From Nannocystaceae bacterium ST9 (GTDB lineage: Bacteria; Myxococcota_A; Polyangia; Nannocystales; Nannocystaceae): a stretch of 64,000 bases of DNA. The stretch lies in assembly GCA_048320885.1 (NCBI GenBank), contig JBLWFJ010000001.1:5889697-5953696 (forward strand), given 5' to 3'. This document shows, piece after piece, positions 6,037 to 62,783 of this stretch. How positions within the stretch are numbered: position 1 is the first letter of the stretch; every line of letters begins with the position of its first letter. A program made the translations under genes and the position numbers. A model generated the notes under the pieces. The model was not told the DNA's origin. It was given only the letters and a program-made list of their open reading frames with translations, and ran no database searches.

Positions 6037-6038
6037 CG

Positions 6039-9219: not shown

Positions 9220-9231
9220 TCCCGACCCGGC

Positions 9232-16298: not shown

Positions 16299-16307
16299 AT
16301 TTGGCTC

Positions 16308-16331: not shown

Positions 16332-16344
16332 ACCTCCACGCCCT

Positions 16345-17994
16345 CTACTGACCCATCTTGAGGATCAGCGAGGTCGCCAGCGTCGGGCCGTTGCCCTCGC
16401 CGTAGCTGACCGCGAGCTCGTAGCGCGAGTTCGGATCGGGCGCCTCGACGACGACCAGCGGATTGGCGTCGGCCTCGGTGTCGGACACGGCCGCGCCGGT
16501 GTTCACGTCGGTGACCTGCATGTCGATGTTCATGGTCGGATCATGAGCGACCGCCATGAACACGCTGACTTCGTCGATCTGCAGCTGGGTCTGCCGGATG
16601 GTCTCGCCCGGATAGAGGATCGTCGAGTTCAACGCCCACTGGTTCTCGTGGATGACCAGGCCGTTGCCGAGCCCGGCCTCGGTCACCGCCACCGAGGTCT
16701 TGGCCCCGTTGTCGAGCATGGTCTGGAAGGCCGGCTGGAGGATGTCGGGGCGGATCTGGATGCCGCCCTCGCGCATCACCACCATCGCGCCGAACTCTTC
16801 TTGGCCGGCGGCCATGCTCAAGGTGATCGAGTGCGCGCCGGTCTCGGTCGGCGTGAACAAGACGGTCGGGTTCTCGTCGGCCTCGCGATCGGCGACGACC
16901 TCGTCGCCGTTCGGACCGAGCACGGTGATGTCGAGGTCGGCGACGTCGGTGGCCCCGGTCGCGAACACCACGTAGTTCTTGCCGGCCTCGAACACGCGGT
17001 TGAGCACCTGCGGACGGGTCGGCGTCAGGTAGCCGGCCGCGACCGTGGCGGCTTGATCGTCGTAGCCGAACTCGGTGGTCTCGTCGATCCGCGAGGCGAC
17101 GACCAGAACCTGTTGGAGCGCGAGCGCCAGCCACGAGCCCGGGCCCCAGACCTCGGGGTCGACGCTGAGCGCGAGGCTGGTCACCGGCGGGGTCTCGGAC
17201 TCGTACTGCGCCTGCTCTTCGGTCGGCGCCTCGCGGTTGCCGACGTCCGCGGCGACCACGACGGTGCCGCCCTCCCAGTCGCGCCGCGCGAGCGGGACCA
17301 TCATGACTTGCAGCGGCGTGAAGCAGTCGGCGAACGCCAGCCCGTCGTCCATGCAGGCCTGCAGATCGCCGACCGAGGTGGTCTTGCCGGTCTCGCGTCC
17401 GCCCGACACGCCCACGCCCGCGCCCGTGCCCGCGACCTCGCCCGAGACACCACCTTCGACGCCCTTGCTCTCGCCGTAGCTGAATGCGCCGACGCTGAGC
17501 GTGACCACATAGTGGGTCGCGCGTGCGCAGTCGGGGTCGTCGGCGGGGATCTTGAATTGCCCGACCAGCTCGTAGGAGCCGATCGTCACGTAGTTGAACT
17601 CGAGCCCCGAGCCGCCGCGCACGAAGCCCTCGAAGCGGGCGAAGTTGACGGGCACCCGAGCCTTGAGCTCGGCGAAGTTGCGCACGAAGATGCTCTCGAT
17701 CCGCCGCCCGTTGGCCTTGCGATACACGTAGTCGGCCGAGACCGGGCAGTTGACCCATTCGATGTTCTCGGGCGCGTTCGGATCGTAGCGAACCAAGAAC
17801 AGGTTGCGGTGCAGCTCGACGGTGTTGTGGATGTGGTGGAGCTGGCTCTCTTCGAAGCCGAACAGGTTGATGGTCGGGTGGTTGTCCTGCGCGGGTGTCA
17901 TCACCTTGCGCTTGTCTTTGTCGCAGCCCGACGACAGCAAGCTGCAAGCGAGAGGGAGGGACCAAAACAGCGGGCGAAGTCGGGGGTGAACCAT
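16345..17994 (-). CDS. Hypothetical lipoprotein
   Basis: Lipobox LACSLLSSGCD. 549 aa with balanced composition. No recognised domain. Confidence 0.55.
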   Translation of the reverse strand: MVHPRLRPLFWSLPLACSLLSSGCDKDKRKVMTPAQDNHPTINLFGFEESQLHHIHNTVELHRNLFLVRYDPNAPENIEWVNCPVSADYVYRKANGRRIESIFVRNFAELKARVPVNFARFEGFVRGGSGLEFNYVTIGSYELVGQFKIPADDPDCARATHYVVTLSVGAFSYGESKGVEGGVSGEVAGTGAGVGVSGGRETGKTTSVGDLQACMDDGLAFADCFTPLQVMMVPLARRDWEGGTVVVAADVGNREAPTEEQAQYESETPPVTSLALSVDPEVWGPGSWLALALQQVLVVASRIDETTEFGYDDQAATVAAGYLTPTRPQVLNRVFEAGKNYVVFATGATDVADLDITVLGPNGDEVVADREADENPTVLFTPTETGAHSITLSMAAGQEEFGAMVVMREGGIQIRPDILQPAFQTMLDNGAKTSVAVTEAGLGNGLVIHENQWALNSTILYPGETIRQTQLQIDEVSVFMAVAHDPTMNIDMQVTDVNTGAAVSDTEADANPLVVVEAPDPNSRYELAVSYGEGNGPTLATSLILKMGQ

Positions 17995-43487: not shown

Positions 43488-44621
43488 ATGAGCGAGTCCA
43501 AGACCGAACCCCAGATCACTCGTGCGAAGATGGCGATCATCGGCGCCGGCCCGGCCGGATCGGCGACGGCACTGCACCTCGCCCAGCTCGGCATCGACGG
43601 AGTGACCATCGTCGATCTCCACGAGTTCCCGCGCGACAAGACCTGCGGCAGCGGCCTCTCGCCGCGAGCGATCAGCACGCTCAAGGACCTCGAGGTCTGG
43701 GACGCGGTCGAGCCGATCGCCTACCCGATCACCGGGCTGCGCGTGGTCTCGCGCGAGGGCAACGAAGCGTGGATGTCGGGCGGCGATCGGGCCGGCGCGG
43801 TCATCTGCCTGCGCCACGATCTCGACTTCGAGATCCACAAGCGCTCGATCGAGCGCGGCGTGAACTTCCTGTCGGGCTTCGCCGCCGACACGCCGATCCT
43901 CAAGGGCTCGCGCTGGGCCGGCATTCGGGCCAAGGACGGGCGCGAGGTCCATGCCGATCACGTGGTCGTCGCCAACGGGGCGCACACCAGCTTCTCGACC
44001 TGCGAGGGCCCGAAGAAGACCATCCACACGATCATGGGCTGGTGGGAGGGCGTGCCCTACCGCCCGCACCACATCGAGATGTTCTGGGACGACCTGACGC
44101 TGCCCTACTACGGCTGGCTCTTCCCGGAGACGGCGACCCGGGTCAACATCGGGATCACCTACGAGGACGATCACAAGCTCAAGAATGCCCGGCGGATCTT
44201 CCAGGCCTTCCTCGACAAGCACTTCCGCGATCGCCTGAAGGACGCCACGCAGATCGGCAAGTGGAAGGGCCACCCGATCGTCTACACCTACCGGATCGGC
44301 AAGCTGTGGAGCCCCGGGCGGGTGGTGGTCGGCGAGGCCGGCCGCATGACGCACCCCGCGACCGGCGAAGGCATCTACCAGGGCATGCGCTCGGGGATGT
44401 TCGCCGCCGAGGCGATCGCCGACGTCCTGCGCGGCAAGGCCACCGAGGCCGAGGCCATGACCCGCTACGATCGGCGCTGCGCGACCACCTTCCTGCCCTC
44501 GTTCTGGGCCGGCGGCCTCGCGCGGGGCGTGCTGCAGACGCCCTTCCTCGACTTCGTGGTCAAGGCGACTCACATGCCGCGGGTTCAGGCCGCGACCGCG
44601 CGCATGCTCGCCCACCTCTGA
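43488..44621 (+). CDS. FAD-dependent oxidoreductase, geranylgeranyl reductase family
   Basis: MAIIGAGPAGSATALHLAQLG dinucleotide fold, ...GEAGRMTHPATGEGIYQGM (GGR-type C-terminal motif). Confidence 0.8.
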   Translation: MSESKTEPQITRAKMAIIGAGPAGSATALHLAQLGIDGVTIVDLHEFPRDKTCGSGLSPRAISTLKDLEVWDAVEPIAYPITGLRVVSREGNEAWMSGGDRAGAVICLRHDLDFEIHKRSIERGVNFLSGFAADTPILKGSRWAGIRAKDGREVHADHVVVANGAHTSFSTCEGPKKTIHTIMGWWEGVPYRPHHIEMFWDDLTLPYYGWLFPETATRVNIGITYEDDHKLKNARRIFQAFLDKHFRDRLKDATQIGKWKGHPIVYTYRIGKLWSPGRVVVGEAGRMTHPATGEGIYQGMRSGMFAAEAIADVLRGKATEAEAMTRYDRRCATTFLPSFWAGGLARGVLQTPFLDFVVKATHMPRVQAATARMLAHL

Positions 44622-44708: not shown

Positions 44709-45848
44709 ATGAGGAAGCTCGATCTCCGTCTCCTGCCGCTCGCGGTCGTACTCGTGGCCGCTGGCTGCTTCACCCCCGCCAACTACGGCGAGGGCGTGAA
44801 GGACTCCAAGGGCCATGGTCACGAGGGCGCGCCCGCGGGCGACCACGCCGAACAAGCCGAGGGCCACGAGCCGGAGGCCGCGATCATCGAGGGCGTCCTG
44901 CCCGGCAGCGAGCCCCGCAAGCTCGACATGGACACCCCGCGGATCGAGTTCGAGCCGCCCTTCGACGGCGAGCCCAAGACCTCGAACAAGCTGGCGAGCG
45001 GCGTGTTGGTCGAGACCTTCGAGGATGGCTCCGGCCCGGGCGTGGTCGATGGTCAGATCATCGAGTTCCACTTCAAGGGCTACAGCGCCAGCTCCAACCG
45101 TCAGGTCATGGGCTCGCGGATCGCCCCGATGCGGCTGCTGATCAACCAGGCCGCCCGCGAGCGCGACCCGATGACCAACGCGATGATCGACGCGATCCTC
45201 GGGGCCAAGGCCGGCGGCAAGCTGCGGGTCAAGGTGCCCTCGTCGATCGTCGACAAGGACGCGCCGGCCGGTCGCCCGCCGATGGGCGACCTGTGGATCT
45301 GCGTCGACGTCGTCAAGATCGAGGATCGCCCGGAGCTGAGCCCGGCCGAGGCCTACACGGGCACCCCGATCGCGACCAAGAAGCACTCGAACGGGCTCGA
45401 GACCTTCGACTACGTCGCCGGTGAGGGCCGCGAGGCCAAGCAGGGCGATCGCGTGGTCGTCCACTACATCGGCAAGCTCGACGACGGCACCGTGTTCGAT
45501 CAGTCGCACGACCGCGCCGACGGCCTCAACGTCATCCTCGGCGCCGGTGGGATCATCGAGGGCATGGCCCAGGGCCTCGAGGGCGTGCGCGTCGGCATGC
45601 GCCGCAAGCTCGTCGTCCCGCCCGAGATCGGCTACGGCCCGCAGGCGAACGGGCCGATCCCGGCCAACTCGACGCTGACCTTCTTCATGCAGGTCGTCAC
45701 GGTCGAGGACGGCCCGCCCGTGCAGCCGATGCCCGCCATGCCCGGGCCGCCGCCCGGCGTCGCGCCGGGTGGGCAGCCGCCGGCACCTCCGGCTCCGCCC
45801 GCCGACGCGCCGCCGCCGGCTCCCCCGGCCGCTCCGCCTGCGCCCTGA
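44709..45848 (+). CDS. FKBP-type peptidyl-prolyl cis-trans isomerase lipoprotein (two FKBP domains, Pro-rich tail)
   Basis: Lipobox VAAGCF. GDRVVVHYIGKLDDGTVFDQS...TLTFFMQVV is the FKBP signature. Confidence 0.8.
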   Translation: MRKLDLRLLPLAVVLVAAGCFTPANYGEGVKDSKGHGHEGAPAGDHAEQAEGHEPEAAIIEGVLPGSEPRKLDMDTPRIEFEPPFDGEPKTSNKLASGVLVETFEDGSGPGVVDGQIIEFHFKGYSASSNRQVMGSRIAPMRLLINQAARERDPMTNAMIDAILGAKAGGKLRVKVPSSIVDKDAPAGRPPMGDLWICVDVVKIEDRPELSPAEAYTGTPIATKKHSNGLETFDYVAGEGREAKQGDRVVVHYIGKLDDGTVFDQSHDRADGLNVILGAGGIIEGMAQGLEGVRVGMRRKLVVPPEIGYGPQANGPIPANSTLTFFMQVVTVEDGPPVQPMPAMPGPPPGVAPGGQPPAPPAPPADAPPPAPPAAPPAP

Positions 45849-45927: not shown

Positions 45928-46770
45928 CTACTCGCAGCGAGCCGCCTGCTCGCGCAGCGTCGCGACCTCGCCCCGCAGGGCCGCGAGCGCGGCCTTCAAC
46001 TCGGCGATCTCCCCGGCCTGCTCCTGCACGCCGACGATCGCCAGGCTGCCGTACGAGTACAGGTCCACGCGGTCGTTGCGCGGATCGGCCCAGACCTGAT
46101 CCTCGCCGTCCTCGAGGATCACGCCGAGGCTCGACTTGCCGTCCCGACGATCGCGGTAGCGCCAGGTCGCCATTCGCATGGCGAGCACCTGCTCGTAGAA
46201 CGCGGCGCGCTGGCTCGGGTCGAGATAGGCGATGTCCTGCTTGAACGCGGCCCGCGAGATCGGGCAGCCGCCCTGCTGCATCTTCGGATCCTCGGTCGCG
46301 CAGACCATCACGGCGTTGCAGTCGCTCATGAAGTCGCAGGTCTCGCCCTCGGTCGAGCAGGGGTCGCCCTCCTGGATGTCGCCGCAGGTCGGCACGCCCT
46401 CCCAGGGCCCACCGTAGCCGCTGCAGACCGGATCGCCGCAGCTCGAGTACCAGGTCAGCGTCCCGCCGGTCTCGCCGGTGGTCGTGTCGCCGGACGTGGT
46501 CTCGCCGGACGTGGTCTCGCCGGCGCTGGTGGTCTCGCCGGCGCTGGTGGTCTCGCCGGCGCTGGTGGTCTCGTCGGCGCTGGTGGTCTCGCCGGCGCTG
46601 GTGGTCTCGCCGGCGCTGGTGGTCGCGCCGTCGTCCGAAGTCGCGGGGCCGTCCTCGCTGCCCGCGGCCTCCTCGGCAGCGTCGTCGGTGTCGCCCTCGT
46701 CCTTGTCGCAGGCGGCGAGGGTGAAGGGCAGGAGCAGGGTCGAGATCAACAACGAGTCAGTGAATTTCAT
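45928..46770 (-). CDS. Lipoprotein with (E/G)TTSAG tandem repeats and Cys-rich middle domain
   Basis: Start MKFTDSLLISTLLLPFTLAACD at complement of 46768..46770. The rest of the listed ORF is antisense to the Rieske gene. Confidence 0.55.
   Translation of the reverse strand: MKFTDSLLISTLLLPFTLAACDKDEGDTDDAAEEAAGSEDGPATSDDGATTSAGETTSAGETTSADETTSAGETTSAGETTSAGETTSGETTSGDTTTGETGGTLTWYSSCGDPVCSGYGGPWEGVPTCGDIQEGDPCSTEGETCDFMSDCNAVMVCATEDPKMQQGGCPISRAAFKQDIAYLDPSQRAAFYEQVLAMRMATWRYRDRRDGKSSLGVILEDGEDQVWADPRNDRVDLYSYGSLAIVGVQEQAGEIAELKAALAALRGEVATLREQAARCE
46471..46625. repeat. 15/18-bp in-frame tandem repeat array (CTCGCCGGCGCTGGTGGT x about 7) encoding (ETTSAG)n
   Basis: Direct repeats are visible in the nucleotide sequence. 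Confidence 0.8.
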
Positions 46771-46853: not shown

Positions 46854-47978
46854 TCACTCCTGCGGGCAGGAGGGCATGACCGGCAGGCGACGCTGGGTCG
46901 GCACACCCTCGCGCTCGGCCAGGTACTCCTCCCACTTGCGGATGGTCAGCTTCTGGAACTCGAGCACCGCGGGGTTGAGCTCGGCGATCGGCGCGTCGTA
47001 GTAGCGCTCGTAGCCCTCCTGCTCGGCCTCGACGGCGAACCCGTCCTCTTCGAGCAGCGGTCGCATCAGCATCCGGTTGCCGGCCTTGAGCAGCGGCGTC
47101 ATCAGCCAGCGCGGGATCGCGACCGGCAGCAAGGGCACCTTGAGCTGCTTGTAATAGAACAGGAAGAAGGCCCGCGTGGTTCGCTCGTTGATTGGCAGGA
47201 CCAGGCACCAGTGCTTGATCCAGCCGTCGGTGTTCGACCACTGGTGCGGGTACTCGTAGCCGAGCTTCATGTGGCCGGTGTCGGCCTTCTCGCGCGGGAC
47301 GAAGTGGCTGTAGAACTTCCCGGCCCCGACCTTGGTGTCGTACTCGACGAGCACCTTGTCGCCCTCGACCTCGAGCTTGGTCAGCTTGGGATCCTTGAAG
47401 GGCTCGAACTTGCGATGCAGGTACGCGTGGGTGAAGTCCGAGACGTTGTCGATGATCATCGAGTGATGGGCCTGCCAGGTGAAGTCGACCGGCACGCAGG
47501 CCCACGCGTCGGGCCCTTCCAACTCGGGGATCTCGGGCATCGCCACGCTCGCCGCCTTCTCGCGCTCGCCCGGGAACAGCCAGATCAGCCCGTAGCGCTC
47601 GCGGACCTCGTAGTCGGGCAGGCGGATCGCCGGCATCTTCTTGTCGAAGAGCTCGTGCGGGATGTCGACGAGGTGACCCTCGCCGTCGAAGGTCCAGCCG
47701 TGATAGGGGCACACGACCTGGCAGCCGCGGACCTCACCGGTGGTCAGCTTGAGCTGACGGTGGGCGCAGCGGTTCTCGATGCAGCGCAGGCGACCGTCGG
47801 TCCCGCGGTAGAGCGCGAACGACTTGCCCCAAAACTCGACCTCGACCACGCCGCCGGGCTGGAGCTTGTCGGTGTACTCGACCGGGTACCAGAAGTTGGG
47901 GTTCATGCCGGCGGCACGGACCTTCTGGCGGCGGTTCTTGGCCTCGGTGAAGCTCGGGATGCGGACCTTGCTCGACAT
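46854..47978 (-). CDS. Rieske [2Fe-2S] non-heme iron oxygenase (KshA/PaO/SdmA-like)
   Basis: Rieske CAHR...CPYHGW, mononuclear iron DNVSDFTHAYLH. 374 aa. ATG at complement of 47976..47978. Confidence 0.8.
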   Translation of the reverse strand: MSSKVRIPSFTEAKNRRQKVRAAGMNPNFWYPVEYTDKLQPGGVVEVEFWGKSFALYRGTDGRLRCIENRCAHRQLKLTTGEVRGCQVVCPYHGWTFDGEGHLVDIPHELFDKKMPAIRLPDYEVRERYGLIWLFPGEREKAASVAMPEIPELEGPDAWACVPVDFTWQAHHSMIIDNVSDFTHAYLHRKFEPFKDPKLTKLEVEGDKVLVEYDTKVGAGKFYSHFVPREKADTGHMKLGYEYPHQWSNTDGWIKHWCLVLPINERTTRAFFLFYYKQLKVPLLPVAIPRWLMTPLLKAGNRMLMRPLLEEDGFAVEAEQEGYERYYDAPIAELNPAVLEFQKLTIRKWEEYLAEREGVPTQRRLPVMPSCPQE

Positions 47979-47995
47979 GCTCGTTGTCCTCGTGG

Positions 47996-49105
47996 TCACT
48001 CGGCGGGGGTCGGGTCGGCGTGCACCGGCGCGCGGACGATCGTGCGCGCGCGATGGATCATGCCCTCGCGCTGGAAGAACTCGACGGCCTCGGCGATGCC
48101 CTCGCGCAGGCTGGTCGGGCGATAGCCGAGCTCGCGGGCGGCCTTGCCGTAGTCGACGTGCCGGCGCATCTCGAGCACCGCGATCGACCCGGGCGTGAGC
48201 CGCTGCGAGGCCTTGGGGAACAGGTGGGCGAGCGTGCCCGAGTAGAGCGCCGCGATCATCCGGACCGGCTCGCGCGGCAGCTGGATCAGCCCGTGCTCGA
48301 CCTGCGCGACCTCGCGGACGGTGTCGAAGAGCTGCTGCAGGGTCATGAACTCGGTCGCGAACAGGTACTTCTGACCCTTGCGGCCGTACTCCATCGCGAG
48401 CAGGTGGCCGGTCGCGATGTCGTGCGCGCGGATCCACATGAACCCGCCGTCGATGTAGACGCGCAGCTTGCCGTTGACGTAGTCGCAGATCGTCCCGCCC
48501 ATGCGCGAGGGCAGATAGTCCCAAGGACCGATGCAGCCACAGCTGGTCGCGATCACGGCGTCGAGCCCCTCGGCGACCGCCTCGAGCACCTGATGCTCGG
48601 CCAGCGCCTTGGTGTGCGCGTAGGGCATCGTGTGGCCGAAGGGATAGAAGGGGATGGTCTCGTCGCTGGGCTTGCTGGGATCGTCGAGATCGAAGCCGGT
48701 CGCCGAGAACGAGCCGGTCAGCACCATTCGACCGACGCCGTTCTCGAGGCAGGCCCGCGCGACGTTGCGGGTGCCGAGCACGTTGATCCCGTAGAGGCTG
48801 CGCTCTTCTTCGGGCGTCGCGCTGGCCGTCGAGATCTTGGCCGCGACATGGAACACCCGCGCCGCGCCCTTGCTCGCGCGCAGCATCGAGTCGAACTCGC
48901 GGATGTCGCCCTCGACCCGCTCGACGTCGAGGCCCTCGAGGCTGCGGTTGTCGGCGTTGGGCTGGACCAGCGCGCGGACCTCTTGCCCGGCCTCGAGCAG
49001 GTGGCGAACGAGGTTGCTGCCGACGTGGCCGCTCGCGCCGGTGACCAGGACCTTGCCGGTCGGGATGCCGGCGGATGGGTTGCGGTCGGTGGCGGTCTCG
49101 GGCAT
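47996..49105 (-). CDS. NAD-dependent epimerase/dehydratase (3-beta-hydroxysteroid dehydrogenase-like SDR)
   Basis: VLVTGASGHVGSNLVRHL Rossmann motif, YxxxK region. Its start lies 18 nt downstream of the Rieske gene stop, so the two are co-oriented. Confidence 0.8.
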   Translation of the reverse strand: MPETATDRNPSAGIPTGKVLVTGASGHVGSNLVRHLLEAGQEVRALVQPNADNRSLEGLDVERVEGDIREFDSMLRASKGAARVFHVAAKISTASATPEEERSLYGINVLGTRNVARACLENGVGRMVLTGSFSATGFDLDDPSKPSDETIPFYPFGHTMPYAHTKALAEHQVLEAVAEGLDAVIATSCGCIGPWDYLPSRMGGTICDYVNGKLRVYIDGGFMWIRAHDIATGHLLAMEYGRKGQKYLFATEFMTLQQLFDTVREVAQVEHGLIQLPREPVRMIAALYSGTLAHLFPKASQRLTPGSIAVLEMRRHVDYGKAARELGYRPTSLREGIAEAVEFFQREGMIHRARTIVRAPVHADPTPAE

Positions 49106-49286
49106 CGCGAGGCGTGGCTACCACGCGAGCGAGGATGGGGTGAGTGCGGCGCAGCACATTTGCCGGAGCCGGGAAAATCTCCAGCGGACCCTCCGGTCCG
49201 CGCCGGAATCCAGCGCGCGTGGCTCTGCGAGCCGGCTCACGGGTCTGCGGTCCAGCCAATGACCTTCATCGCTATGATCGGCCTCG

Positions 49287-50828
49287 ATGCCGAGCCACAC
49301 CACGCAGGTCCTGATCATCGGCGCCGGCCCGACCGGCCTGGCGCTCGCTTCGGAGCTGGTTCGCCACGGCGTGCGGGTGCGCGTCGTCGAGCAGCACGCC
49401 GGGCCCTCGATCCATTCGAAGGCCCTGGTCGTGCAGCCGCGCACGCTCGAGGTGTTCCACGCGATGGGCCTCGCCGACGAGGTGCTGGCCCAGGCCCAGC
49501 AGGTGTTTCGCATCCACGCCCACCTGCAGGGCAAGACCGTGCCGATGATCCAGTTCGGCGAGGTCGACGGGCCCTACTCGCGGCCCTTGATGCTGCGCCA
49601 GAGTCAGACCGAGCGGCTGCTCGCCAAGCGGCTGGCCGAGCAGGGCGTGGCGATCGAGTGGAACTCGGGCCTGACCGCGTTCGGCTCGGGGCCCGAGGGG
49701 GTCGAGGCCACGCTGAGCACCGGCGAGCGCGTGCAGGTCGACTACATGGTCGGCTGCGACGGCGCGCACAGCCTGGTCCGCAAGCAGCTCGGGATCGCGT
49801 TCGAAGGCTCGACCTACACCAACGACTTCATGCAGGTCGACTGCAAGGTTCGCTGGGACTACCCCGACGACACCGGCCAGGGCTTCTTCACCGACGAGGG
49901 CGCGGTGATCGGTCTGCCGCTCGGGCAGGGCAGCTTTCGCTTCATCGTGATCCGCCGCGAGCGACCCGAGCACGCGCCCGACGAGCCGACGCTCGCCGAG
50001 TTCCAGGCGATCGTCGCCGCCGAGGTGCCCGGCGAGGTCGAGCTCCACGATCCCGAGTGGTTGATCCGCTTTCGCCTGCACGAGCGGCTGGCCGAGCACT
50101 ACCGCGTGGGCCGGGTGTTCCTGGCCGGCGACGCGGCCCACATCCACACGCCCGCAGGCGGGCAAGGCATGAACACCGGCATCCAGGACGCGCACAACCT
50201 GGCCTGGAAGCTCGCGCTCGTGCTGGCCGGACACGCGGGCGAGACGATGCTCGACAGCTATCACGCCGAGCGCCACCCGATCGCGGCCGACGTGCTGCGC
50301 TTCACCGATCTCGTGTTTCGAACCGGGCTGGGCAGCAACGTGTTGATCCGCAAGCTGCGGCCGCTCTTGCTACCGCTGGTGTTCGGCAGCGCGTGGGTCA
50401 GCAGCCGGGTCACGCGGACCGTGTCGCAGCTCGAGATCAACGTGCGGCGCAGCCCGATCGTCGAGGACCACCGGTTCTTCCCGACCGGCCCGCACGCGGG
50501 CGACCGAGCTCCGGACGCGAGCTTCCTGCACGAGGGCGGCGAGACCCAGGTGTTCGAGATCCTGCGCGGGACTCGGCACGTGGTGTTCGCCCACTGCGTG
50601 CGCGCCGAGGCGCTGGCGAGCCTGCGGAGCAGCCTGCCCGAAGCGCTGGTCCGAGTGGTGGTCGCCGACGAGGGCGAAGAGCTCGAGGAGCGCTACCACC
50701 TCGGGCACGGGCCGGCGCTCTGGGTCGTGCGACCGGACGGCTACATCGGCTATCGCCAGTCGGGCGACGACCCCGAGCCGCTGCTCGCATGGTTCGCTCG
50801 CATGCTGGCCGCGATCATCCCGACATGA
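49287..50828 (+). CDS. FAD-dependent aromatic-ring hydroxylase-type monooxygenase with C-terminal thioredoxin-like domain
   Basis: VLIIGAGPTGLALA, DG motif, AGDAAHIHTPAGGQGMNTGIQDAHNLAWKL, typical of PHBH-fold (class A) flavoprotein monooxygenases. Confidence 0.85.
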   Translation: MPSHTTQVLIIGAGPTGLALASELVRHGVRVRVVEQHAGPSIHSKALVVQPRTLEVFHAMGLADEVLAQAQQVFRIHAHLQGKTVPMIQFGEVDGPYSRPLMLRQSQTERLLAKRLAEQGVAIEWNSGLTAFGSGPEGVEATLSTGERVQVDYMVGCDGAHSLVRKQLGIAFEGSTYTNDFMQVDCKVRWDYPDDTGQGFFTDEGAVIGLPLGQGSFRFIVIRRERPEHAPDEPTLAEFQAIVAAEVPGEVELHDPEWLIRFRLHERLAEHYRVGRVFLAGDAAHIHTPAGGQGMNTGIQDAHNLAWKLALVLAGHAGETMLDSYHAERHPIAADVLRFTDLVFRTGLGSNVLIRKLRPLLLPLVFGSAWVSSRVTRTVSQLEINVRRSPIVEDHRFFPTGPHAGDRAPDASFLHEGGETQVFEILRGTRHVVFAHCVRAEALASLRSSLPEALVRVVVADEGEELEERYHLGHGPALWVVRPDGYIGYRQSGDDPEPLLAWFARMLAAIIPT

Positions 50829-50851: not shown

Positions 50852-51991
50852 ATGCGCGCCGCTGCACGCACGCTCACCCTCGCGTTCTCGCTCGGACTCG
50901 TGCTCGCCTGCCCCGCGAAGGGCCCGAGCGAGGTCACGACGCCCGAGCCGACCGAGTCGGACGCACCCCAGCGCCCGCACGTCGGCGACCGGGCCCCGGC
51001 GATCTCGCTGGCCACGCTCTCGGGCTCGCGCGTGACCCTGCCGCAGTCCGACGCCGATCGGGCCGCCATCCTGATCTTCGGCTCGTTCAGTTGACCGCCG
51101 TTTCGAATGAAGACTCCTCGGTTCGAGGAGATGGCGATTCGCTGGCGAGACAAGGCCGATTTCTACATCGTGTTCACCCGCGAGGCCCACGCGAAGGCCC
51201 GCGGCGCGGAGCCGCTCGGGCAGGCCGCCGATCAGCTCATGGCCCAGGACGTCGACGGCGACAACGCGGTGAGCCTGGCCGAGTACCAAGGGCCGATGGA
51301 GATGTTCGTGCCCTTCGACATCGACGCCGACGGCGTCGTGCGCTCGCACGAGCTGCTCGCGGCCCGCAAGATCGTGCAGTTCGACGCGATCGAAGATCCG
51401 ACCACCGCCGAGGCCCGACTCGCGCTCGCGCGGCGCTTTCGTGACGAGGTGCCCGGCGACATCCCGGTGCTGATCGACGAGATCGACAATCGCACGTCGG
51501 TGGCCTACGGCGGCGCGCCCAACAGCATGTTCGTGATCGCACCGGACGGGACGATCAGCCACGAGTTCTTCTGGGCCTCGACCCGCGACGCCGAGCGTGC
51601 GCTGGCCGAGCTGTTCGGCGAGGAGCTTCCGCCCGCCGAGCCGCGCGTGGTCGACTGGGCGGCGATCGAGCCCGAGCTCGCGGCCGCCCGCGAGGCCGAT
51701 CGAAATGTGTTGCTGCAATTCACGGCGCCGGGCTGCGGCGCGTGTGCGGCGATGGAGGCCGAGACGCTGGTCGATCCGAGGATCGACGCGCGCCTGGGCG
51801 AGTACCGGCACGTCACGCTCGGGGTCGAGCGCGACGACGCGTGGGGGCTCTTCGAGGCGCTCGAGCTCGACGCCACGCCGGCGTTCGTGATCGTCGATCC
51901 GGCGACTCGTGCGGTGCTCGGCGAGACCCAGGGCTTCACCGACGCCGATCGCTTTCTCGGGTTTCTCGACGAGTCGGCGGAGGCTGAGTGA
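50852..51991 (+). CDS. Predicted selenoprotein: iodothyronine-deiodinase-like domain (in-frame TGA = Sec at 51092..51094) fused to thioredoxin-like CGAC domain; lipoprotein
   Basis: Reading through TGA joins ORFs 50852..51094 and 51107..51991 in one frame to give ...ILIFGSFS-U-PPFRMKTPRFEEMAIRWRDKADFYIVFTREAH. This matches deiodinase active-site blocks FGSCT-U-PPF and DFLIIYIEEAH with identical spacing. C-terminus has QFTAPGCGACAAMEAE (thioredoxin CxxC). Confidence 0.6.
51095..51135 (+). promoter_or_regulatory. Candidate bacterial SECIS hairpin downstream of the in-frame UGA
   Basis: CTCCTCG-GTT-CGAGGAG perfect 7-bp stem (51114..51130) starting 19 nt after the UGA, with a G/U-rich apical loop. 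Confidence 0.35.
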
Positions 51992-55383: not shown

Positions 55384-58296
55384 TCAGGCTCGGCGAGCGC
55401 GGCGACGGACGAGCCCGAGCAGGCCGATCAGCGCGAGGCCGAGTACTCCGGATCCACGCGGCGAGTCGGGCTCGCTGGCGCAGCCGCAGCCGCGCCCGTC
55501 GGGCACCCACAGGGTCGCGTCGCCGGTCTCGCCCGACTCGTCGCCGGTGTCGGTTCCGGTCTCGGTCCCGGTCTCTTCATCGCCCTCGACGATGCAGGCC
55601 GCGCTGCATCCGTCGCCGTCTTGCTCGTTGCCGTCGTCGCACTGCTCGCCGGCCTCGATCAGCGCGTTGCCACACTCGCCCGCGAGCGCGCCGTGCCCGA
55701 CGATGCAGACCTCGTCGATGTTCCAGCCGCCGAACTCGAGCCCGAAGTCCGAGCTCAGCGTGAAGCCGATCTGGACCATGCCGTCGACGACCTGCTCGCC
55801 GATCTCGACGTCGTGAAAGCGCCACTCGCGATCGCGGTGATGCAGGGTCGAGAATTCGTCGAAGCTGGCGACGTTCGTCCAGACCGGGGTGCCGTTGGCG
55901 GTGATCCGGGCTTGATCGAAGAACCCGTCCTCGACGTTGAGCCAGCGCCGGTACTGCAGGCGGACGTGCTGCCAGTCGCCGACGGCGACCGGATCGGCGA
56001 CCAGCGTCGCGCTCGTGCCGGGCGAGTAGGTGCCCGGCTGGGCGAGCGTGTTGCCGGCCACGGCGAGGCCCGCGAAGGGCCCGTCGGGGTCGCCGCTCGC
56101 TCCGACCGGGTTGCCGACCTGGAAGCCGTCGATGGTCCAGCCGCCGGTCTCGCCCTCGCTCTCGAAGCCCGAGCACCAGATCAGGGTCGGCTCGCCGATG
56201 AAGTGCTCGTACCAGGGATCGGCCGGATTGTCGGGCCGCACGCCGACCGTGCCGTTGCCCCAGTCGAGGTCGACTTGGTACTGCACGACCGAGAACTCGG
56301 CCTGCGCGGGGATGGTCGCGTGCCAGCGTCCCTGCGCGTCGACCTGCATGGCCAGCGTCTGGGCCGGGTTGTCGGGCGCGCCCACAGGCGCTCGCACTCG
56401 CCAGCGCACGCTCGGCTGCACGCTGCTCGGGCAGTCGGGGAACGCGTCGCCGACCTCGAGCTCGAGCGCGAGCGCGAAGTCGGGCAGCACCTGCGTGTTC
56501 AGCTGAGTGACGCCGAGCGGCGGCTCGAACAGCCCGTGAGCCGCGAACGCGTCGTTGATCACGCAGGCGTCGGGCGTGCCGTTGGCGAGGTTGCCGTCGT
56601 CGTCGTTGGCCGCGAGCGCCTCGAGGTACATCGAGGGGATGTCGACCGCCCGGCGAATGCCCTCGAACCAGATGTGATCGGTCTTGGCGATCCCGAGCGC
56701 GCCCTGCTCGGCGCGCAGGGCCTCGCGGAGATCCCAGAGCGTGCCGCCGATGATCCGACCCTCGTCGTGGACCTCGCCCTTGTCTTCGGGCCAGTGCCAT
56801 TCGAAGCCCTCGGGATCGAGATCGCGGATCGGCGAGGCGTCGAAGAAGAACCCGATGCCCATCTTCGGATCGTCGACGATCGTCGCGGCCAGGTAGTCGG
56901 CGATGCCCTCGCTGAGCGCTCCGTCGAACACGCCGACGCCGGGGATCAGCGACTGCGTGTGCACCGAGTGGCCGAACTCGTGATAGACGACGTCGGCGAT
57001 CCGGCCCGAGTTCTGACAGCCACCGCCCGACAAGAAGAAGTTGAGCGAGTCGCCGTCGCTGAACGCGTTGCAGACGTCGGCGATGTTGGTCGTGACCTGC
57101 AATTGCTGATCGAGGTAGTCGAAGTCCGGGGCGATCGAGCGCACGCGATCCTTGACCAGCAGCGCGTGCACGTAGGTGTTGAGCTGGGCGTCGAGCTGCT
57201 CGTCTTCGCCGTCGCCCCACAGCACGCTGCTGGCCGGGCTGGCCGTGGTGATCAGCGCGGCGTCGGGGCCCGCGTCGTTCGAAACCGTCACCAGCTGGCC
57301 GTGCGCGCCGAACTCGGCCGCGCTGTTGGCCGCCGCGACCGTGAAGCCGCCGGCCTGATCGGTGAACTGCGGCACGCCGGCGATCTCGACCGACACGCCG
57401 CGGGCCGGAAAGCCGACCCGTGGACCGACCGTGCTGCGCTGCTGGACCTCGAACTGCAGGTTGGCCCACATCAAGGTCGAGCGACGCGCGACCGGGTCGC
57501 CGCTGGCCGCGTCGACGAACACCTGCCAGCGACCGATCGGGCTGGCCAGCGACACCTCGATCATGCGGACCTCGATCAGCTCGATCGCTCCGCTCGCGTG
57601 GATCAGCGGGAGGATCTGGATCGGGCTTGCGATGTCGGCCGAGGTCTGCTCGACGCGGCCACTAGCGAAGTCGTCGGCGATCCAGGTGCGCGCGCCCGCG
57701 ATCGCTCGCTCGGCGTCGACGCTGGCGCTGCGGGCCGCGAGCGTCGGGTGCGGGACCAGCTGCGATCGAACCAGGCTCAGGCGATCGTGGGCGAAGCGAA
57801 GGCTGATCTGGCCGCCGATCACCGGCTTGCCCTGGAAGGTCTGCGCGAACCCGAGGGTCCGGCCCTGGCGATCCTCGACGTCGGCGACCAGCACCAGGTC
57901 GGCGGGATCGATCCCGGGCGCGAGCAACTCGGCGTGCCGCTCGAACAGCTCGCGAGCGAAGCGCTGGGCGTGCTCCGACGAAGCGCTCGCGTGCGCGACG
58001 ATCAGGCCGTGGGGGATCAGCGTGTCGAGGGCTCCGGTGTCGCGATCGAAGCGAGCCCAGACCGGACCGAGCTCCGCCTCGAGCCGCGCGAGCGCCCGCG
58101 ATCGCAGGCCGGTCGGCGGGGCGTCCCACGAGCCGGTTCGAGCGCTCCGCAGCACTCGCGGGGCCTCGAGCTCGAGCGTGTCTCGGCCACGCAGGTGGTC
58201 GGGGGGCTGGATGGCCTCGGCCTCGAGCGATGGGATCAGAACCAACGCCGCAGCAACGAACCCGAGCGCGACAGGAGAACGGTAGCTTCCGAACAT
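55384..58296 (-). CDS. Secreted thermolysin-like (M4-type HExxH...ExxxD) zinc metalloprotease with MYXO-CTERM tag
   Basis: VVYHEFGHSV and GALSEGIADYLA. C-terminus GCGCASEPDSPRGSGVLGLALIGLLGLVRRRARRA. Start MFGSYRSPVALGFVAAALVLIP at complement of 58294..58296. Confidence 0.8.
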   Translation of the reverse strand: MFGSYRSPVALGFVAAALVLIPSLEAEAIQPPDHLRGRDTLELEAPRVLRSARTGSWDAPPTGLRSRALARLEAELGPVWARFDRDTGALDTLIPHGLIVAHASASSEHAQRFARELFERHAELLAPGIDPADLVLVADVEDRQGRTLGFAQTFQGKPVIGGQISLRFAHDRLSLVRSQLVPHPTLAARSASVDAERAIAGARTWIADDFASGRVEQTSADIASPIQILPLIHASGAIELIEVRMIEVSLASPIGRWQVFVDAASGDPVARRSTLMWANLQFEVQQRSTVGPRVGFPARGVSVEIAGVPQFTDQAGGFTVAAANSAAEFGAHGQLVTVSNDAGPDAALITTASPASSVLWGDGEDEQLDAQLNTYVHALLVKDRVRSIAPDFDYLDQQLQVTTNIADVCNAFSDGDSLNFFLSGGGCQNSGRIADVVYHEFGHSVHTQSLIPGVGVFDGALSEGIADYLAATIVDDPKMGIGFFFDASPIRDLDPEGFEWHWPEDKGEVHDEGRIIGGTLWDLREALRAEQGALGIAKTDHIWFEGIRRAVDIPSMYLEALAANDDDGNLANGTPDACVINDAFAAHGLFEPPLGVTQLNTQVLPDFALALELEVGDAFPDCPSSVQPSVRWRVRAPVGAPDNPAQTLAMQVDAQGRWHATIPAQAEFSVVQYQVDLDWGNGTVGVRPDNPADPWYEHFIGEPTLIWCSGFESEGETGGWTIDGFQVGNPVGASGDPDGPFAGLAVAGNTLAQPGTYSPGTSATLVADPVAVGDWQHVRLQYRRWLNVEDGFFDQARITANGTPVWTNVASFDEFSTLHHRDREWRFHDVEIGEQVVDGMVQIGFTLSSDFGLEFGGWNIDEVCIVGHGALAGECGNALIEAGEQCDDGNEQDGDGCSAACIVEGDEETGTETGTDTGDESGETGDATLWVPDGRGCGCASEPDSPRGSGVLGLALIGLLGLVRRRARRA

Positions 58297-58428
58297 GGTA
58301 AAGCTGGCAAAAGTGTACCGACGTTCGCGGAGTTTGCCCAGGCTTCCATGTCCATCCGCGCGGGATCTTTTGCCTTCCAAGCCTTCGTGCCGCGCTTGCC
58401 TTCGATCGATCACTCGATCGGGCGAGGT

Positions 58429-59172
58429 CTACGCCTTGCGGCGCTCGACGTAGTCCTCGGCGATGTCGACGATCGCCTGCAGGGCCCCGTGCAGCTCCAG
58501 CTCGCGGGCTGCGACGCGCTGACGAAAGATCCGGCGCGCCAGCATCCAGACGCCCGAGAGCCACAGCCCCATGCCCAGGGGGATCATCGCGGGCCCTCCG
58601 ATCGCCACCAGTGGAACGAGCGGGACCAGCGAGCCGGCAGCACCCACGCCGCCGAACAATCCACCGAACATCGCCTGGACCAGCTGATCGAGCTTCTCTT
58701 CGATGCGGATCCGCGTGCGACCCGATCGCGGGACCACGGTCAGCGAGATGGTTCGCGCCCAGCCGGGCCGCGCTCGACCGTGCACGGGCAGCGCGACCCA
58801 GGTCAGCGAGCGACCGATCAGCGAGGCGACCCCGAGCTCGCCGGTGTGCCGGCGGACCGCCTCGATCACGTACTCGTAGGCCGGCACCGGGATCTCGCCC
58901 TCGAGCGTCAGCTCGATCAGGATCGTCCGCGGTCCGCCGATCCACGGCGAGGCTCGATCGCGGCGAGCCTGCCTCATGACCAGCTCGGCCGCGGCTCGGC
59001 GCACGTGCACGGGCTCGATCCCGGCCGAGTCGGCGGCCTCGACCAGCTCGCCGAGGCTCATGCGTCGCACGTCGCTGGCTTGCCGCTGCAAGTCGGCGGC
59101 GCGCTCGAGGATCTGGGCGGCCTCGTTCTCCTGGAAGCGATGCTCGTGGCGGCGGCCCGGAGAACTCGACAT
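58429..59172 (-). CDS. Hypothetical membrane protein
   Basis: Soluble N-terminal half, Gly-rich C-terminal TM hairpin. Confidence 0.4.
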   Translation of the reverse strand: MSSSPGRRHEHRFQENEAAQILERAADLQRQASDVRRMSLGELVEAADSAGIEPVHVRRAAAELVMRQARRDRASPWIGGPRTILIELTLEGEIPVPAYEYVIEAVRRHTGELGVASLIGRSLTWVALPVHGRARPGWARTISLTVVPRSGRTRIRIEEKLDQLVQAMFGGLFGGVGAAGSLVPLVPLVAIGGPAMIPLGMGLWLSGVWMLARRIFRQRVAARELELHGALQAIVDIAEDYVERRKA

Positions 59173-59175
59173 GCG

Positions 59176-59892
59176 TCAACCTGCAACGCGGGGGAACATC
59201 AGCTCGATCTCCAGTCGCACGCGATCTTCGGCCAGCTCCGCGGCCATGCCCTCGTAGTCGATGCCGAACGCCTTGGCGCTGATGTCGAGGACCGCGGAGC
59301 CGACGACCTGAGTGGGCCCGACCTCGAGCGTGGCCGGGAAGTCCAGCGTACGCTCGACCCCGTGCAGGTGCATGGTCCCGCGCACGCGATGGGTGCCTTC
59401 GTCGTCGTCGGCCATCGGCTCGATGCTCTGCGCGGTGAAGGTGGCCGTAGGGAATTTGTCCACGTCGAAGAAGTCGGGGCCCTTGAGGTGCTCGGTCAGC
59501 CCGTGCTGATCGGCCGCGACCGAGCCGGTTCGGACGACGATCTCGAGCGCGACCGGCTTGCCGTCTTGCAACGTGAGGTTCGCGGTGAAGCGAGCGAAGT
59601 GCCCGATGTGGCCGATCGTCGCGCGCGCGACCGCGAAGCCGACCGAGCTGTGATCCCGGTCGGCGCTCAGCAATTCCTGACCGGGCAGCGGCTCCGCAGG
59701 AGGCGCCTGCTCGACGATCTCGCCCTCGTCGGTGGTCTCGCTCGCGGGCCCAGACCCGCCGGTGGTCGTGGTCGAAGTCGAGGTCGGGAGATCGGCGGGC
59801 TCGGACGCGGTCGTGACCTCGCTCGGCCCTTTGGGACAGGCGCTCAGGACCACGACCAGCATCGACGAGAGCAGGGAGCTGCGCAGCGGCAT
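59176..59892 (-). CDS. YceI-like family lipoprotein
   Basis: DRDHSSVGFAVARATIGHIGHFARF...HLHGVERTLDFPATLEV matches the YceI polyisoprenoid-binding fold. Confidence 0.75.
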   Translation of the reverse strand: MPLRSSLLSSMLVVVLSACPKGPSEVTTASEPADLPTSTSTTTTGGSGPASETTDEGEIVEQAPPAEPLPGQELLSADRDHSSVGFAVARATIGHIGHFARFTANLTLQDGKPVALEIVVRTGSVAADQHGLTEHLKGPDFFDVDKFPTATFTAQSIEPMADDDEGTHRVRGTMHLHGVERTLDFPATLEVGPTQVVGSAVLDISAKAFGIDYEGMAAELAEDRVRLEIELMFPRVAG

Positions 59893-59990
59893 GGCCCGAC
59901 TCTATCGCGCGCACGAGCCTCCGGGCGGGCGAGAAAATCTTTCGCCACGCCACCATCGCCGGGACTTCGTGCCACACTCCCGCGCGAGCG

Positions 59991-60284: not shown

Positions 60285-62678
60285 TCAATCGACGTAGCGG
60301 TTGAGATCGAAGCGGCCCGCGTGCAGCGGATCGCCGGCGTCGAACTGCTGCTGAAACCAGTCGTAGGTCGCCCAGAAGTTCGGGTCGTCGCGCTCGATCC
60401 CGAACTCGGCCAGCGCGACGCGAGCCGCGGGTCCGCCGTCGAAGTCGGTCAACATCGCGAAGAACTCGGGCAGGCGATCGGCCTCGACGTCGAAGAAGTA
60501 GTTGGGATACGAGCCGAGGCTGCCGGGCTGGACGTGCAGGGTGTCCTTGTTCGGGTCGAGCCGCTTGGTCTCGAGCAGCAGCGAGTTCACGTTGTCGTGC
60601 CAGCGATTGACGATCAGCGTGTACACGCGATCGTGGCCGGCGAGGCCGCGGACGCGCAGGTAGATCAGGTTGACGTCGGTGTCGGTGACGTGGCGGATGA
60701 ACCCGGTCCCGGCCGCGTTCAGAGCCCGCAGCCCGGCGCGCAGATCGGCTTCGTCGTCGAATTGCTCGGGCATCGCCGGCGCGGCCTGGTCGGCCCGGCG
60801 ATAGTTGAGCGGGTCGAACTCGATGGCCAGCGCGGGGTCGAAGTGGGCGTCGACCAGGCGCTCGAGCAGCTCGCGCTTGGGGTCGTCGGTGTGAAACTCG
60901 ATCTCGGTCGCGCGATCGGTCAGCACGCCGCGATGATCGATGTGCTCGATCGCCCGCACGCCCTGATACCACTCGCGCAGGATCGGCAGGCGCTCGTCCG
61001 GAGGCAGGAAGTAGAGAAAATTCAATTCGGCGTCGGCGCGCAGATAGTCCATGTAGCGGCGCACGCTGATCTGGTGGCTGACGTTGCCGAACACGTCGAA
61101 GCCGGCGACCAGCGCGTAGTAGACCCGTTCGAATTGCGCATAGTCGCATAGCCACACGGTCCGCGGCAGATCGCCGAGCGCCCCGGCGTGGACCGACGCG
61201 CTGTCGAAGTGGCGATAGATGGTCAGCAGCGGGGTGTCGCCCTCGCGCTCGCCCGCCCAGATCCCGTCGATGTCGAGCCCGCCGGGGACCCGCTCGTCGT
61301 AGAGCGCGACCTTGGCCCGATAGAAGTCGGCGTAGCGCTTGCGATAGGCGACGCCGAGCACCCGGACGATCCGGCCGTCGCTGCCCCGCTCGATCGGCAT
61401 GCGCAGGTTGTCGGCCTGGCCGAGCAGGAACTCGGGGTCGCTCAGGGTCGGATCGGCGTCGGGATCCATGAAGGTCACCCAGAAGTGCTCGTGGATCACG
61501 TTGAGCGCGACCTGGCCCTTGCAGACCGGGCCTTGAATGAAGGTCTGCATGATGTAATGGGAGTGATCGAGCATGAATTGATAGCGGACGCGCGGCGGGA
61601 TCTGGGCATAGACGACGAAGGGGTTGGCCTCGGTCCGCGGATCGACCTCGACCCAATGCGGGGGCTCGAGCCAGGGCGTGGCGATGAATTGTTCGGTCAG
61701 CCGGGCGAGCGCGGCGTCGTCGAGCGCGACGACCATGTGGGTCTTGTGGACGATCGTCGAATGAATCTTGCGCAGGCGATACCAGAAATCGCCGTCGATC
61801 GAATCATAGGGGCGCAGGGTCGGGATCACGACGATCGGCTGGCCGGGCGGCGTCGACGAGCGGACCAGTTCGAAGAACTCGGGCGCCCCGTCGGCGGCCG
61901 AGGTCGCGAAGCTCAGGTGGGCCAAGAACAGGTGCTCGTAGAGATAGCGAGCCGTCATCGCGTGCTTGGCATCGCCATGGTTGAAGAACGCCTCCCAGGT
62001 CGCAATCGCCTGCGCGGCCGCGGACGAGGGCTCGGTCCGGGCGCGCTGCTCGTCGGCGCTCGGGCCCTCGGCGCCGCGGGCCAGCCAGGTCGCGATCAGG
62101 TCGTACTCGGCTTGCGAGAGCGCCGGAAATCCGAACGGCATCGCGCGATTGGGGTGTCGGCTCAGGTAGCGGCCGAGCTCGTCGGGATCTTCGGCGCAGG
62201 TCGAATCGCGCGACTCGGCCTGGTACTCGCCGCGGATCTCGGGTGAGCGCCGCTTGCCGGCCAGCACGTGCAGCATCAGCGAGTCGTTCGTGCCCGGCGG
62301 AGCCCGGCTCTCGGTCACCGAATGAAACGACTTGCCTCGCCATTGTTCGGTCGAGGTGGCGTCGGTGAAGAGTCGAGTCGGGGCCTGGTCGCGCAGTCGG
62401 GTCCCGTCGTAGACCCGCAGCTTGCTGGCGCCTCGATCGACGCCTTCGAAGGAGCCGAGCTGGAGCTGACAGGGCGCGTTGTAACAGGAGTGACAGACGA
62501 CACAGCGCTTGGCGAGGATCGGCTCGACGTCGGCGACATAGCCGACCGGCCGGTCGAGTTCGACGACATGCACGGGCGGTGGGGCTCGAACACAACCAAT
62601 CAGCAGCAGCGCGAGAGCGATCGCGTGCCAGGCCCGGGCGTGAAGCGGGCGAGCACACGCATCCTCTGCTTTCGACAT
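60285..62678 (-). CDS. cti: Fatty acid cis/trans isomerase (Cti family, heme CXXCH)
   Basis: Signal peptide. CVVCHSC heme-binding motif near the N-terminus. 797 aa with blocks typical of Cti (...WLARGAEGP..., ...FLYFLPPDERL...). Confidence 0.7.
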   Translation of the reverse strand: MSKAEDACARPLHARAWHAIALALLLIGCVRAPPPVHVVELDRPVGYVADVEPILAKRCVVCHSCYNAPCQLQLGSFEGVDRGASKLRVYDGTRLRDQAPTRLFTDATSTEQWRGKSFHSVTESRAPPGTNDSLMLHVLAGKRRSPEIRGEYQAESRDSTCAEDPDELGRYLSRHPNRAMPFGFPALSQAEYDLIATWLARGAEGPSADEQRARTEPSSAAAQAIATWEAFFNHGDAKHAMTARYLYEHLFLAHLSFATSAADGAPEFFELVRSSTPPGQPIVVIPTLRPYDSIDGDFWYRLRKIHSTIVHKTHMVVALDDAALARLTEQFIATPWLEPPHWVEVDPRTEANPFVVYAQIPPRVRYQFMLDHSHYIMQTFIQGPVCKGQVALNVIHEHFWVTFMDPDADPTLSDPEFLLGQADNLRMPIERGSDGRIVRVLGVAYRKRYADFYRAKVALYDERVPGGLDIDGIWAGEREGDTPLLTIYRHFDSASVHAGALGDLPRTVWLCDYAQFERVYYALVAGFDVFGNVSHQISVRRYMDYLRADAELNFLYFLPPDERLPILREWYQGVRAIEHIDHRGVLTDRATEIEFHTDDPKRELLERLVDAHFDPALAIEFDPLNYRRADQAAPAMPEQFDDEADLRAGLRALNAAGTGFIRHVTDTDVNLIYLRVRGLAGHDRVYTLIVNRWHDNVNSLLLETKRLDPNKDTLHVQPGSLGSYPNYFFDVEADRLPEFFAMLTDFDGGPAARVALAEFGIERDDPNFWATYDWFQQQFDAGDPLHAGRFDLNRYVD

Positions 62679-62783
62679 CGTCGGCCAGAGTGCGGTCCGA
62701 TGGGCCGAGTCCGCAAGTCATGCGTATTCGGCAGTTTTTGCCGGCGGTGTCGTTCGAGCGGCGTGATAAGTCCTTCGGACCGC

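Follow-up and report, generated by a model that had tools for sequence, protein, structure and literature searches.

The stretch analysed here, called the window below, comprises 64,000 nt (~70% G+C) of the genome of Nannocystaceae bacterium ST9, a myxobacterium of marine type. Two adjacent genes on its minus strand very probably form an sdmB-sdmA operon of bacterial sterol biosynthesis, which encodes an extended short-chain dehydrogenase/reductase (SDR) and a Rieske oxygenase. An earlier note on this DNA had read the pair as the sterol C-4 demethylation proteins SdmA and SdmB. That reading is supported by the NCBIfam models for SdmA and SdmB and by the characterised enzymes of Enhygromyxa salina (82% and 72% identity, respectively), whose genes have the same arrangement. 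The system itself is already published, and the ST9 genes are orthologues that carry generic names only. The gene models, orthology, conservation of catalytic residues, gene order and linkage of the family to oxidosqualene cyclase (OSC) clusters come from the present analysis; the chemistry, the substrate and the need for a third enzyme, SdmC, are inferred from the literature.

The window contains long spurious open reading frames (ORFs) in every frame, and true genes were told from shadow ORFs by codon-position composition, using the G+C content of third codon positions (GC3) and that of first versus second positions (GC1 and GC2). The ORFs 46854-47978 and 47996-49105, both on the minus strand, together span 46854-49105 exactly, which are the coordinates the earlier note had given for a co-oriented pair. 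Since both ORFs have a GC3 of 0.95, with GC1 higher than GC2, and their products match deposited ST9 proteins residue for residue (MFV8753772.1, named 'Rieske 2Fe-2S domain-containing protein' by NCBI, and MFV8753773.1, named 'NAD-dependent epimerase/dehydratase family protein'), they represent true genes. The contig that encodes both records is 6,975,145 bp long. Overlapping ORFs of 801 and 594 aa in other frames do not have the codon-position pattern of true genes and were rejected as shadow ORFs. The gene order in the note, with the Rieske gene upstream of the SDR gene, must be reversed: in the direction of transcription the SDR gene is upstream and the Rieske gene downstream. The gap between them is 17 nt, not 18. 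The features of the pair are as follows.

47996-49105, minus strand: sdmB, extended-SDR NAD(P)-dependent enzyme, 369 aa, first gene of the pair (MFV8753773.1).
46854-47978, minus strand: sdmA, Rieske [2Fe-2S]/mononuclear-iron oxygenase, 374 aa, predicted C-4 methylsterol oxidase (MFV8753772.1).
47979-47995, minus strand: spacer from the sdmB stop to the sdmA start, 17 nt, with a GAGGA ribosome-binding site ~9 nt 5' of the ATG.
49106-49286, no strand assigned: divergent intergenic region between sdmB and a flavin adenine dinucleotide (FAD) monooxygenase gene, 181 bp, presumed from its position to be the promoter region.

A sequence scan found no terminator-like site between sdmB and sdmA, and a consensus scan found no sigma-70 consensus promoter in the 181-bp region upstream of sdmB. 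The spacer varies from 5 to 159 nt across the called orthologous loci.

The E. salina enzymes have been assayed by Lee et al. 2023 (PMC10202945), who give the locus tags of strain DSM 15201 for them. SdmA alone, expressed in E. coli, converts lanosterol to a 4-methylaldehyde. No methyl group is lost when SdmB is added to SdmA, one is lost with SdmA plus SdmC, and the three proteins together remove both C-4 methyls; the exact role of SdmB was left unresolved in that work. SdmC is an unlinked paralogue of SdmB, to which it is 51% identical, and occurs in Nannocystaceae only. E. salina SdmA also works with the SdmB of Methylococcus capsulatus, but E. salina SdmB fails with M. capsulatus SdmA (PMC10202945). 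Missing from the earlier note is the third, unlinked enzyme, without which the E. salina pair is insufficient (PMC10202945). By analogy with E. salina, the ST9 SdmB would probably need an SdmC partner too.

By sequence, the window Rieske protein is clearly an SdmA orthologue. It matches Pfam Rieske (E 2e-22) and VanA_C (49 bits), and scores 396 bits (E 9.7e-119) with the NCBIfam model NF052579 (SdmA, '4beta-methylsterol monooxygenase'). The match runs end to end (profile positions 2 to 344 of 351), and the next Rieske family scores 35 bits. The protein is 82% identical to KIG16859.1 of E. salina DSM 15201 over 370 aa with no gaps. The Rieske ligands C71-A-H73 and C90-P-Y-H93 are invariant among 121 homologues, as are N178, D181, H184-x3-H188 and D312. 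The N178/D181/H184/H188 stretch aligns with the iron-binding DxxHx4H motif of SxtT, SxtDIOX and DdmC, and D312 is likely the carboxylate ligand of the mononuclear iron. The PDB holds no SdmA-family structure. The best PDB matches are SxtDIOX and SxtT, and the alignment to solved structures stops short of D312, also in a profile search.

The Rieske protein also weakly matches Pfam KshA_C (23.0 bits), and the SDR matches 3Beta_HSD. Together these matches could point to a steroid-catabolic pair, composed of a KshA-like 3-ketosteroid 9-alpha-hydroxylase and a 3-beta-hydroxysteroid dehydrogenase, but we consider such a pair most improbable. The KshA_C score lies below the cut-off of that family (23.3 bits) as well as below the VanA_C score. 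KshA structures are found among the PDB matches (E 1e-15 to 1e-17), but these matches are limited to the generic Rieske half, and SxtT, DdmC and NdmA score equal or better. No KshA-type NCBIfam match was obtained, against 396 bits for SdmA, and neither a KshB reductase nor other steroid-degradation genes are present in the 64-kb window. Best hits to KshA, vanillate demethylase or sugar epimerases, named in the earlier note as speaking against its reading, were not obtained; the best hits of the two window proteins are the SdmA and SdmB models of NCBIfam and the characterised SdmA/SdmB of E. salina.

The window SDR matches Pfam Epimerase (E 7e-31), 3Beta_HSD (E 2e-23) and GDP_Man_Dehyd. Its best NCBIfam model is NF052578 (SdmB), with 255 bits over profile positions 3 to 328 of 328. 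It is 72% identical to KIG16858.1, the SdmB of E. salina DSM 15201, and, in a neighbour-joining tree built from its 120 best SDR homologues, lies inside the E. salina/Pseudenhygromyxa/Plesiocystis SdmB clade. The T22-G23-A-S-G26-H-V-G29 motif, S132 and Y162-A-H-T-K166 are invariant among 120 homologues. Scores separate the SdmB family from the remaining SDRs, with 309 to 356 bits for the top eight 50% cluster representatives and at most 262 for the SDRs that come next. In several 50% cluster representatives (P0242-P0248) the SdmB domain is part of a protein of 732 to 1253 aa. No SdmB-family structure is available in the PDB, where the best match is the uncharacterised oxidoreductase 3wj7; human sterol-4-alpha-carboxylate 3-dehydrogenase (6jkg) is matched weakly (E 5e-12).

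The nearest named relatives of the window proteins come from E. salina, Pseudenhygromyxa sp. WMMC2535 and Plesiocystis pacifica. At the E. salina SWB007 (L001) and Pseudenhygromyxa (L003) loci, an SDR gene followed by a Rieske gene lies at the coordinates that Supplementary Data 1 of PMC10202945 lists as SdmB/SdmA. The same order was found in L001-L004, L006 and L088. Among these, L006 belongs to a Sandaracinus metagenome-assembled genome, in which a squalene epoxidase-squalene synthase fusion, SdmB, SdmA, HMG-CoA reductase, OSC and a sterol methyltransferase are encoded in one run. A genome scan with exact octapeptides of the L006 OSC returned 78 loci from different species, none of them from ST9 or other Nannocystaceae. 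An SdmA-like gene and an SDR gene both lie within 6 kb upstream of the cyclase in 30 of the 78 loci, and in all 30 the SDR gene precedes the Rieske gene on the strand of the OSC. The OSC-linked SdmA-like proteins are 57 to 64% identical to the window protein and the SDRs 44 to 50%. Two of these 30 clusters were annotated and also hold homologues of squalene epoxidase, squalene synthase, ERG2 and ERG24. Both gene neighbourhood and published enzymology thus link the SdmA/SdmB family to sterol synthesis.

In Sandaracinaceae-type clusters, single frames span HMG-CoA reductase and SdmB, and squalene epoxidase and OSC (L043 11-1984; L026 49-2247; L043 4528-7983). These frames could represent gene fusions or merely abutting genes.

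Several observations weigh against the assignment of the ST9 pair to sterol synthesis. The first is that both window proteins fall below the curated 600-bit cut-offs of the NCBIfam equivalog models, with 396 and 255 bits. The proteins of two E. salina strains are also under 600 bits (405 to 413 for SdmA, 277 to 293 for SdmB), and one of the two scored E. salina SdmA proteins belongs to the 90%-identity cluster of the assayed DSM 15201 protein. The SdmA of the OSC-linked Sandaracinus pair scores 406 bits, and the SdmB of the same pair is below the cut-off as well. Thus, the 600-bit cut-offs are methanotroph-specific and are no argument against membership. Because the SdmA and SdmB proteins of E. 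salina, a species with characterised enzymes, fall outside them, the names given to homologues are generic or misleading (TsaM1, vanillate O-demethylase, dihydroflavonol(-4-)reductase). Cut-offs tuned to methanotrophs therefore leave an annotation gap, in which myxobacterial sterol genes are labelled Rieske, epimerase/dehydratase or FAD-dependent monooxygenase.

The second is the small margin of only 16 bits by which the SdmB model exceeds HpnA for the window SDR (255 versus 239 bits). With HpnA this close, and given the VanA_C domain, the Epimerase and GDP_Man_Dehyd matches and the generic database names, the two genes might be unrelated neighbours, that is, a vanillate/aromatic O-demethylase-type oxygenase next to a sugar-nucleotide epimerase or the hopanoid-associated HpnA. 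The likelihood of this appears negligible. The HpnA score is far under the TIGR03466 cut-off of 367.65, and the two genes stay together in all relatives examined and in the 30 OSC clusters. No VanB-type reductase, squalene-hopene cyclase, hpn gene or sugar-pathway gene is found nearby in the window. The SDR is assigned to SdmB despite the small margin because of its identity to KIG16858.1, its position in the clade and the score gap among the 50% cluster representatives.

A third set of observations concerns what accompanies the pair. The 64-kb window holds no OSC, squalene epoxidase, CYP51 or other core sterol gene, and no reductase or ferredoxin gene that could serve SdmA is found nearby in it. 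SMO, OSC, CYP51, SdmA, SdmB and SdmC are listed for all five Enhygromyxa/Plesiocystis/Pseudenhygromyxa genomes in Supplementary Data 1 of PMC10202945, and all sequenced Nannocystaceae are reported to encode Osc and proteins for C-14 and C-4 demethylation (PMC12004948). A sterol pathway in ST9 would thus be expected from the published Nannocystaceae genomes that bracket it. A literature search found no mention of strain ST9.

The window contains no second SDR that would be a candidate for SdmC, and no second ST9 SDR is among the best 120 homologues, which extend down to ~52 to 54% identity. Between SdmC and SdmB of E. salina the identity is only 51%, so that an ST9 SdmC would fall below this range. 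Two stand-alone SDRs with no adjoining Rieske gene, P0191 and P0239, were considered as SdmC and rejected: their neighbourhoods differ from that of the published SdmC, and they are 53 to 60% identical to SdmBs, above the 51% expected. SdmC was not separable among the 50% cluster representatives, into a few of which the whole SdmB/SdmC family is collapsed.

Six positions of SdmB are specific to the clade that includes ST9. A94, G204, W224, V281, S300 and V317 are present in all 41 Enhygromyxa-group proteins, ST9 included; other members of the family, including the OSC-linked SdmBs, mostly have F224, P300 and A317. R204 was rejected as a universal SdmB residue lost in the Enhygromyxa group, as the OSC-linked SdmBs vary at this position. 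The clade-specific residues may be connected with the published finding that SdmB of E. salina is insufficient, and would be compatible with a functionally diverged SdmB in the Enhygromyxa group. An alternative is that the pair modifies sterols or triterpenoids in another manner, for instance by tailoring or by uptake-linked processing of exogenous sterols, or that the reaction of SdmB has shifted. The failure of E. salina SdmB and SdmA to remove a methyl (PMC10202945) would be compatible with this, as would W224, S300 and V317 in place of F, P and A, and the lack of core sterol genes in the window. We nevertheless regard it as improbable: full C-4 demethylation in E. salina depends on SdmB along with SdmA and SdmC (PMC10202945), ST9 SdmA is 82% identical to a proven C-4 methyl oxidiser, and the SdmA/SdmB family is embedded in OSC clusters.

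A more speculative proposal, which we consider rather unlikely although less so than the preceding one, is that the SdmB of the Enhygromyxa group, ST9 included, is a neofunctionalised copy devoted to the second (4-alpha-methyl) demethylation or to one half-reaction, and that ST9 and the L088 genome (GCA_031404295.1) keep a sterol-tailoring island. This island would comprise sdmB-sdmA, the downstream lipoprotein gene, the convergent bsr-FKBP genes and the divergent genes for an FAD monooxygenase and a thioredoxin-like protein, all described below. Certain neighbouring genes of uncharacterised function would in that case have products that work on sterols, perhaps in the later steps of cholesterol modification that are reported for E. 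salina.

For the sdmB-sdmA operon as we read it, the reaction sequence can be proposed from the published enzymes. SdmA, supplied with O2 and with electrons from a reductase, would act on lanosterol-derived sterols and oxidise one of their C-4 methyl groups in successive steps, to the alcohol, the aldehyde and the carboxylate. SdmB would take part in the NAD(P)-dependent oxidation of the 3-hydroxyl, after which the 4-carboxylate would leave as CO2, and in the reduction of the 3-ketone back to the alcohol. The same chemistry, with three methyl oxidations, decarboxylation via 3-hydroxyl oxidation and ketone reduction, is carried out in eukaryotes by ERG25/SMO, ERG26/3-beta-HSD-decarboxylase and ERG27/3-ketoreductase. 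The eukaryotic oxidase, however, is a membrane di-iron enzyme of the fatty-acid-hydroxylase type, whereas SdmA is a soluble, non-homologous Rieske protein (PMC10202945). SdmA and SdmB thus constitute a convergent, non-eukaryotic route for the removal of C-4 methyl groups.

The closest described system is that of E. salina (PMC10202945). It shares with ST9 the family Nannocystaceae, the sdmB-then-sdmA order, a short spacer, the invariant Rieske, putative iron-site and SDR residues and the clade-specific SdmB residues. The flanking genes differ, with RimK, sigma-70 and a sigma-54 activator downstream of the pair in E. salina. The bsr-FKBP genes are on another contig in E. salina, whereas they are 2.2 kb from sdmBA in ST9. 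SdmC, OSC and CYP51 are documented in E. salina, and ST9 is known here from the 64-kb window alone. The founding members of the family, SdmA (MCA1016) and SdmB (MCA1017) of M. capsulatus, have the same two-protein architecture and belong to the same protein families as the ST9 proteins; the E. salina proteins are 45% and 41% identical to them (PMC10202945). The methanotroph pair removes the 4-beta methyl only and its SdmB is self-sufficient, unlike the SdmB of Nannocystaceae (PMC10202945).

Bacterial sterol synthesis bears on the reading of sterane biomarkers and on the origin of eukaryotic sterol synthesis. The locus described here adds one more Nannocystaceae genome with a recognisable system and leaves the current picture of the pathway unchanged. 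It contributes three small points: an annotation gap that results from the cut-offs, the persistence of sdmBA and bsr-FKBP as neighbours, and a few conserved genes nearby that are uncharacterised and might serve in sterol tailoring.

The earlier note had also mentioned a flavoenzyme of the geranylgeranyl reductase (GGR) family upstream of the pair. This gene is present and, judged from its sequence, is an orthologue of published Bsr homologues, but it is not upstream: it is convergent with sdmBA, 2.2 kb past the 3' end of the Rieske gene. A gene for an FKBP-type peptidyl-prolyl isomerase follows it.

43488-44621, plus strand: bsr-like gene, GGR-family flavoenzyme, 377 aa, predicted sterol side-chain C-24 reductase (MFV8753769.1, 'FAD-dependent monooxygenase').
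44709-45848, plus strand: FKBP-type peptidyl-prolyl isomerase gene, Pfam FKBP_C, directly downstream of the bsr-like gene.

The bsr-like product scores 152.8 bits with TIGR02032 (GG-red-SF; cut-off 158.8) and matches Pfam FAD_binding_3 and, weakly, GGR_cat. It contains the active-site cysteine in K-T-C53-G-S-G and YGWLFP, which corresponds to YxWxFP, both of them motifs named in PMC12004948 and shared with the Bsr of S. amylolyticus. It is 69 to 73% identical to the E. salina and Pseudenhygromyxa proteins PRQ02492, PRQ09994, KIG13116 and WP_172301307/WP_172308091, all of which Table S2 of PMC12004948 gives as homologues of Bsr. The sole assayed member is S. amylolyticus Bsr, for which reduction of zymosterol and desmosterol at the C-24 double bond has been shown (Lee and Welander 2025, PMC12004948); its Nannocystaceae homologues are 52 to 55% identical to it (Table S2, PMC12004948). 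Saturation of the C-24(25) double bond in the side chain of the sterol is the most likely function of the ST9 enzyme. A canonical DHCR24-type reductase is present in E. salina as well, and the C-24 role of the Nannocystaceae Bsr copy is a prediction.

GGR-like homologues also occur in the OSC clusters. Of the 78 loci, 21 have a full-length copy shortly before the cyclase gene and on its strand; in 11 of these 21 the copy immediately follows the SdmA-like gene. The bsr-like product is 47 to 55% identical to the myxobacterial homologues that adjoin sdmA in such clusters. At some OSC loci (L022, L029, L035, L044 and L077) a GGR-like gene comes straight after the SDR gene, and the fetched stretch contains no SdmA-like gene. 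Besides the window, L002, L004, L088 and E. salina L087 have the bsr-FKBP pair, the last with sdmBA on another contig. The FKBP gene (~378 aa) always comes directly after the bsr-like gene in the clade (L087 9234-10370; L002 11223-12338; L088 12112-13251). The sdmB-sdmA and bsr-FKBP units are convergent neighbours in ST9 and in the relatives nearest to it, and are dispersed in E. salina and Pseudenhygromyxa. Their proximity looks like a remnant of the clustered arrangement of Sandaracinaceae. A P450 gene at 16076-17461 (plus strand) in L088, 1.5 kb beyond bsr, was considered as CYP51 and rejected, since its product is CYP120-like (2ve3, E 1.5e-90, versus E 3e-42 for CYP51); it has no counterpart in the ST9 window.

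Upstream of sdmB and divergent from it, the gene at 49287-50828 (plus strand) encodes a PRK06184-type FAD monooxygenase of 513 aa, similar to aromatic-ring hydroxylases. It is followed by a gene for a thioredoxin-like protein (51107-51991, plus strand). Both genes occupy the same position in L088 (84% and 78% identity, respectively), and in L002 the FAD monooxygenase gene is 6 kb away from sdmB. The FAD monooxygenase could be a sterol-tailoring enzyme, or merely syntenic.

On the other side, a predicted lipoprotein gene (45928-46770, minus strand) starts 83 nt downstream of sdmA. The signal sequence of its product ends in LAAC, and about eight tandem 18-bp repeats (46468-46630) encode TSAGET. 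The gene is kept after sdmA in L088 (66% identity) and is absent from L002. The protein belongs to no Pfam family, and the start codon used here differs from that of the deposited protein. A reading of its C-terminus as tail-fibre-chaperone-like had no Pfam support and was dropped.

Further upstream of sdmB, three genes at 55384-59901 (minus strand) encode a YceI-like protein of the polyisoprenoid-binding family, a protein of 248 aa and a Cys-rich protein of ~1000 aa. In the TARA contig L004 this trio (4329-9825) stands directly upstream of sdmB-sdmA, with 57%, 69% and 51% identity to the ST9 proteins; in ST9, ~6 kb of other genes now lie between the trio and the pair. The YceI-like gene is adjoined by a full-length fatty acid cis/trans isomerase gene (60285-62717, minus strand; Pfam CTI, 773 bits).

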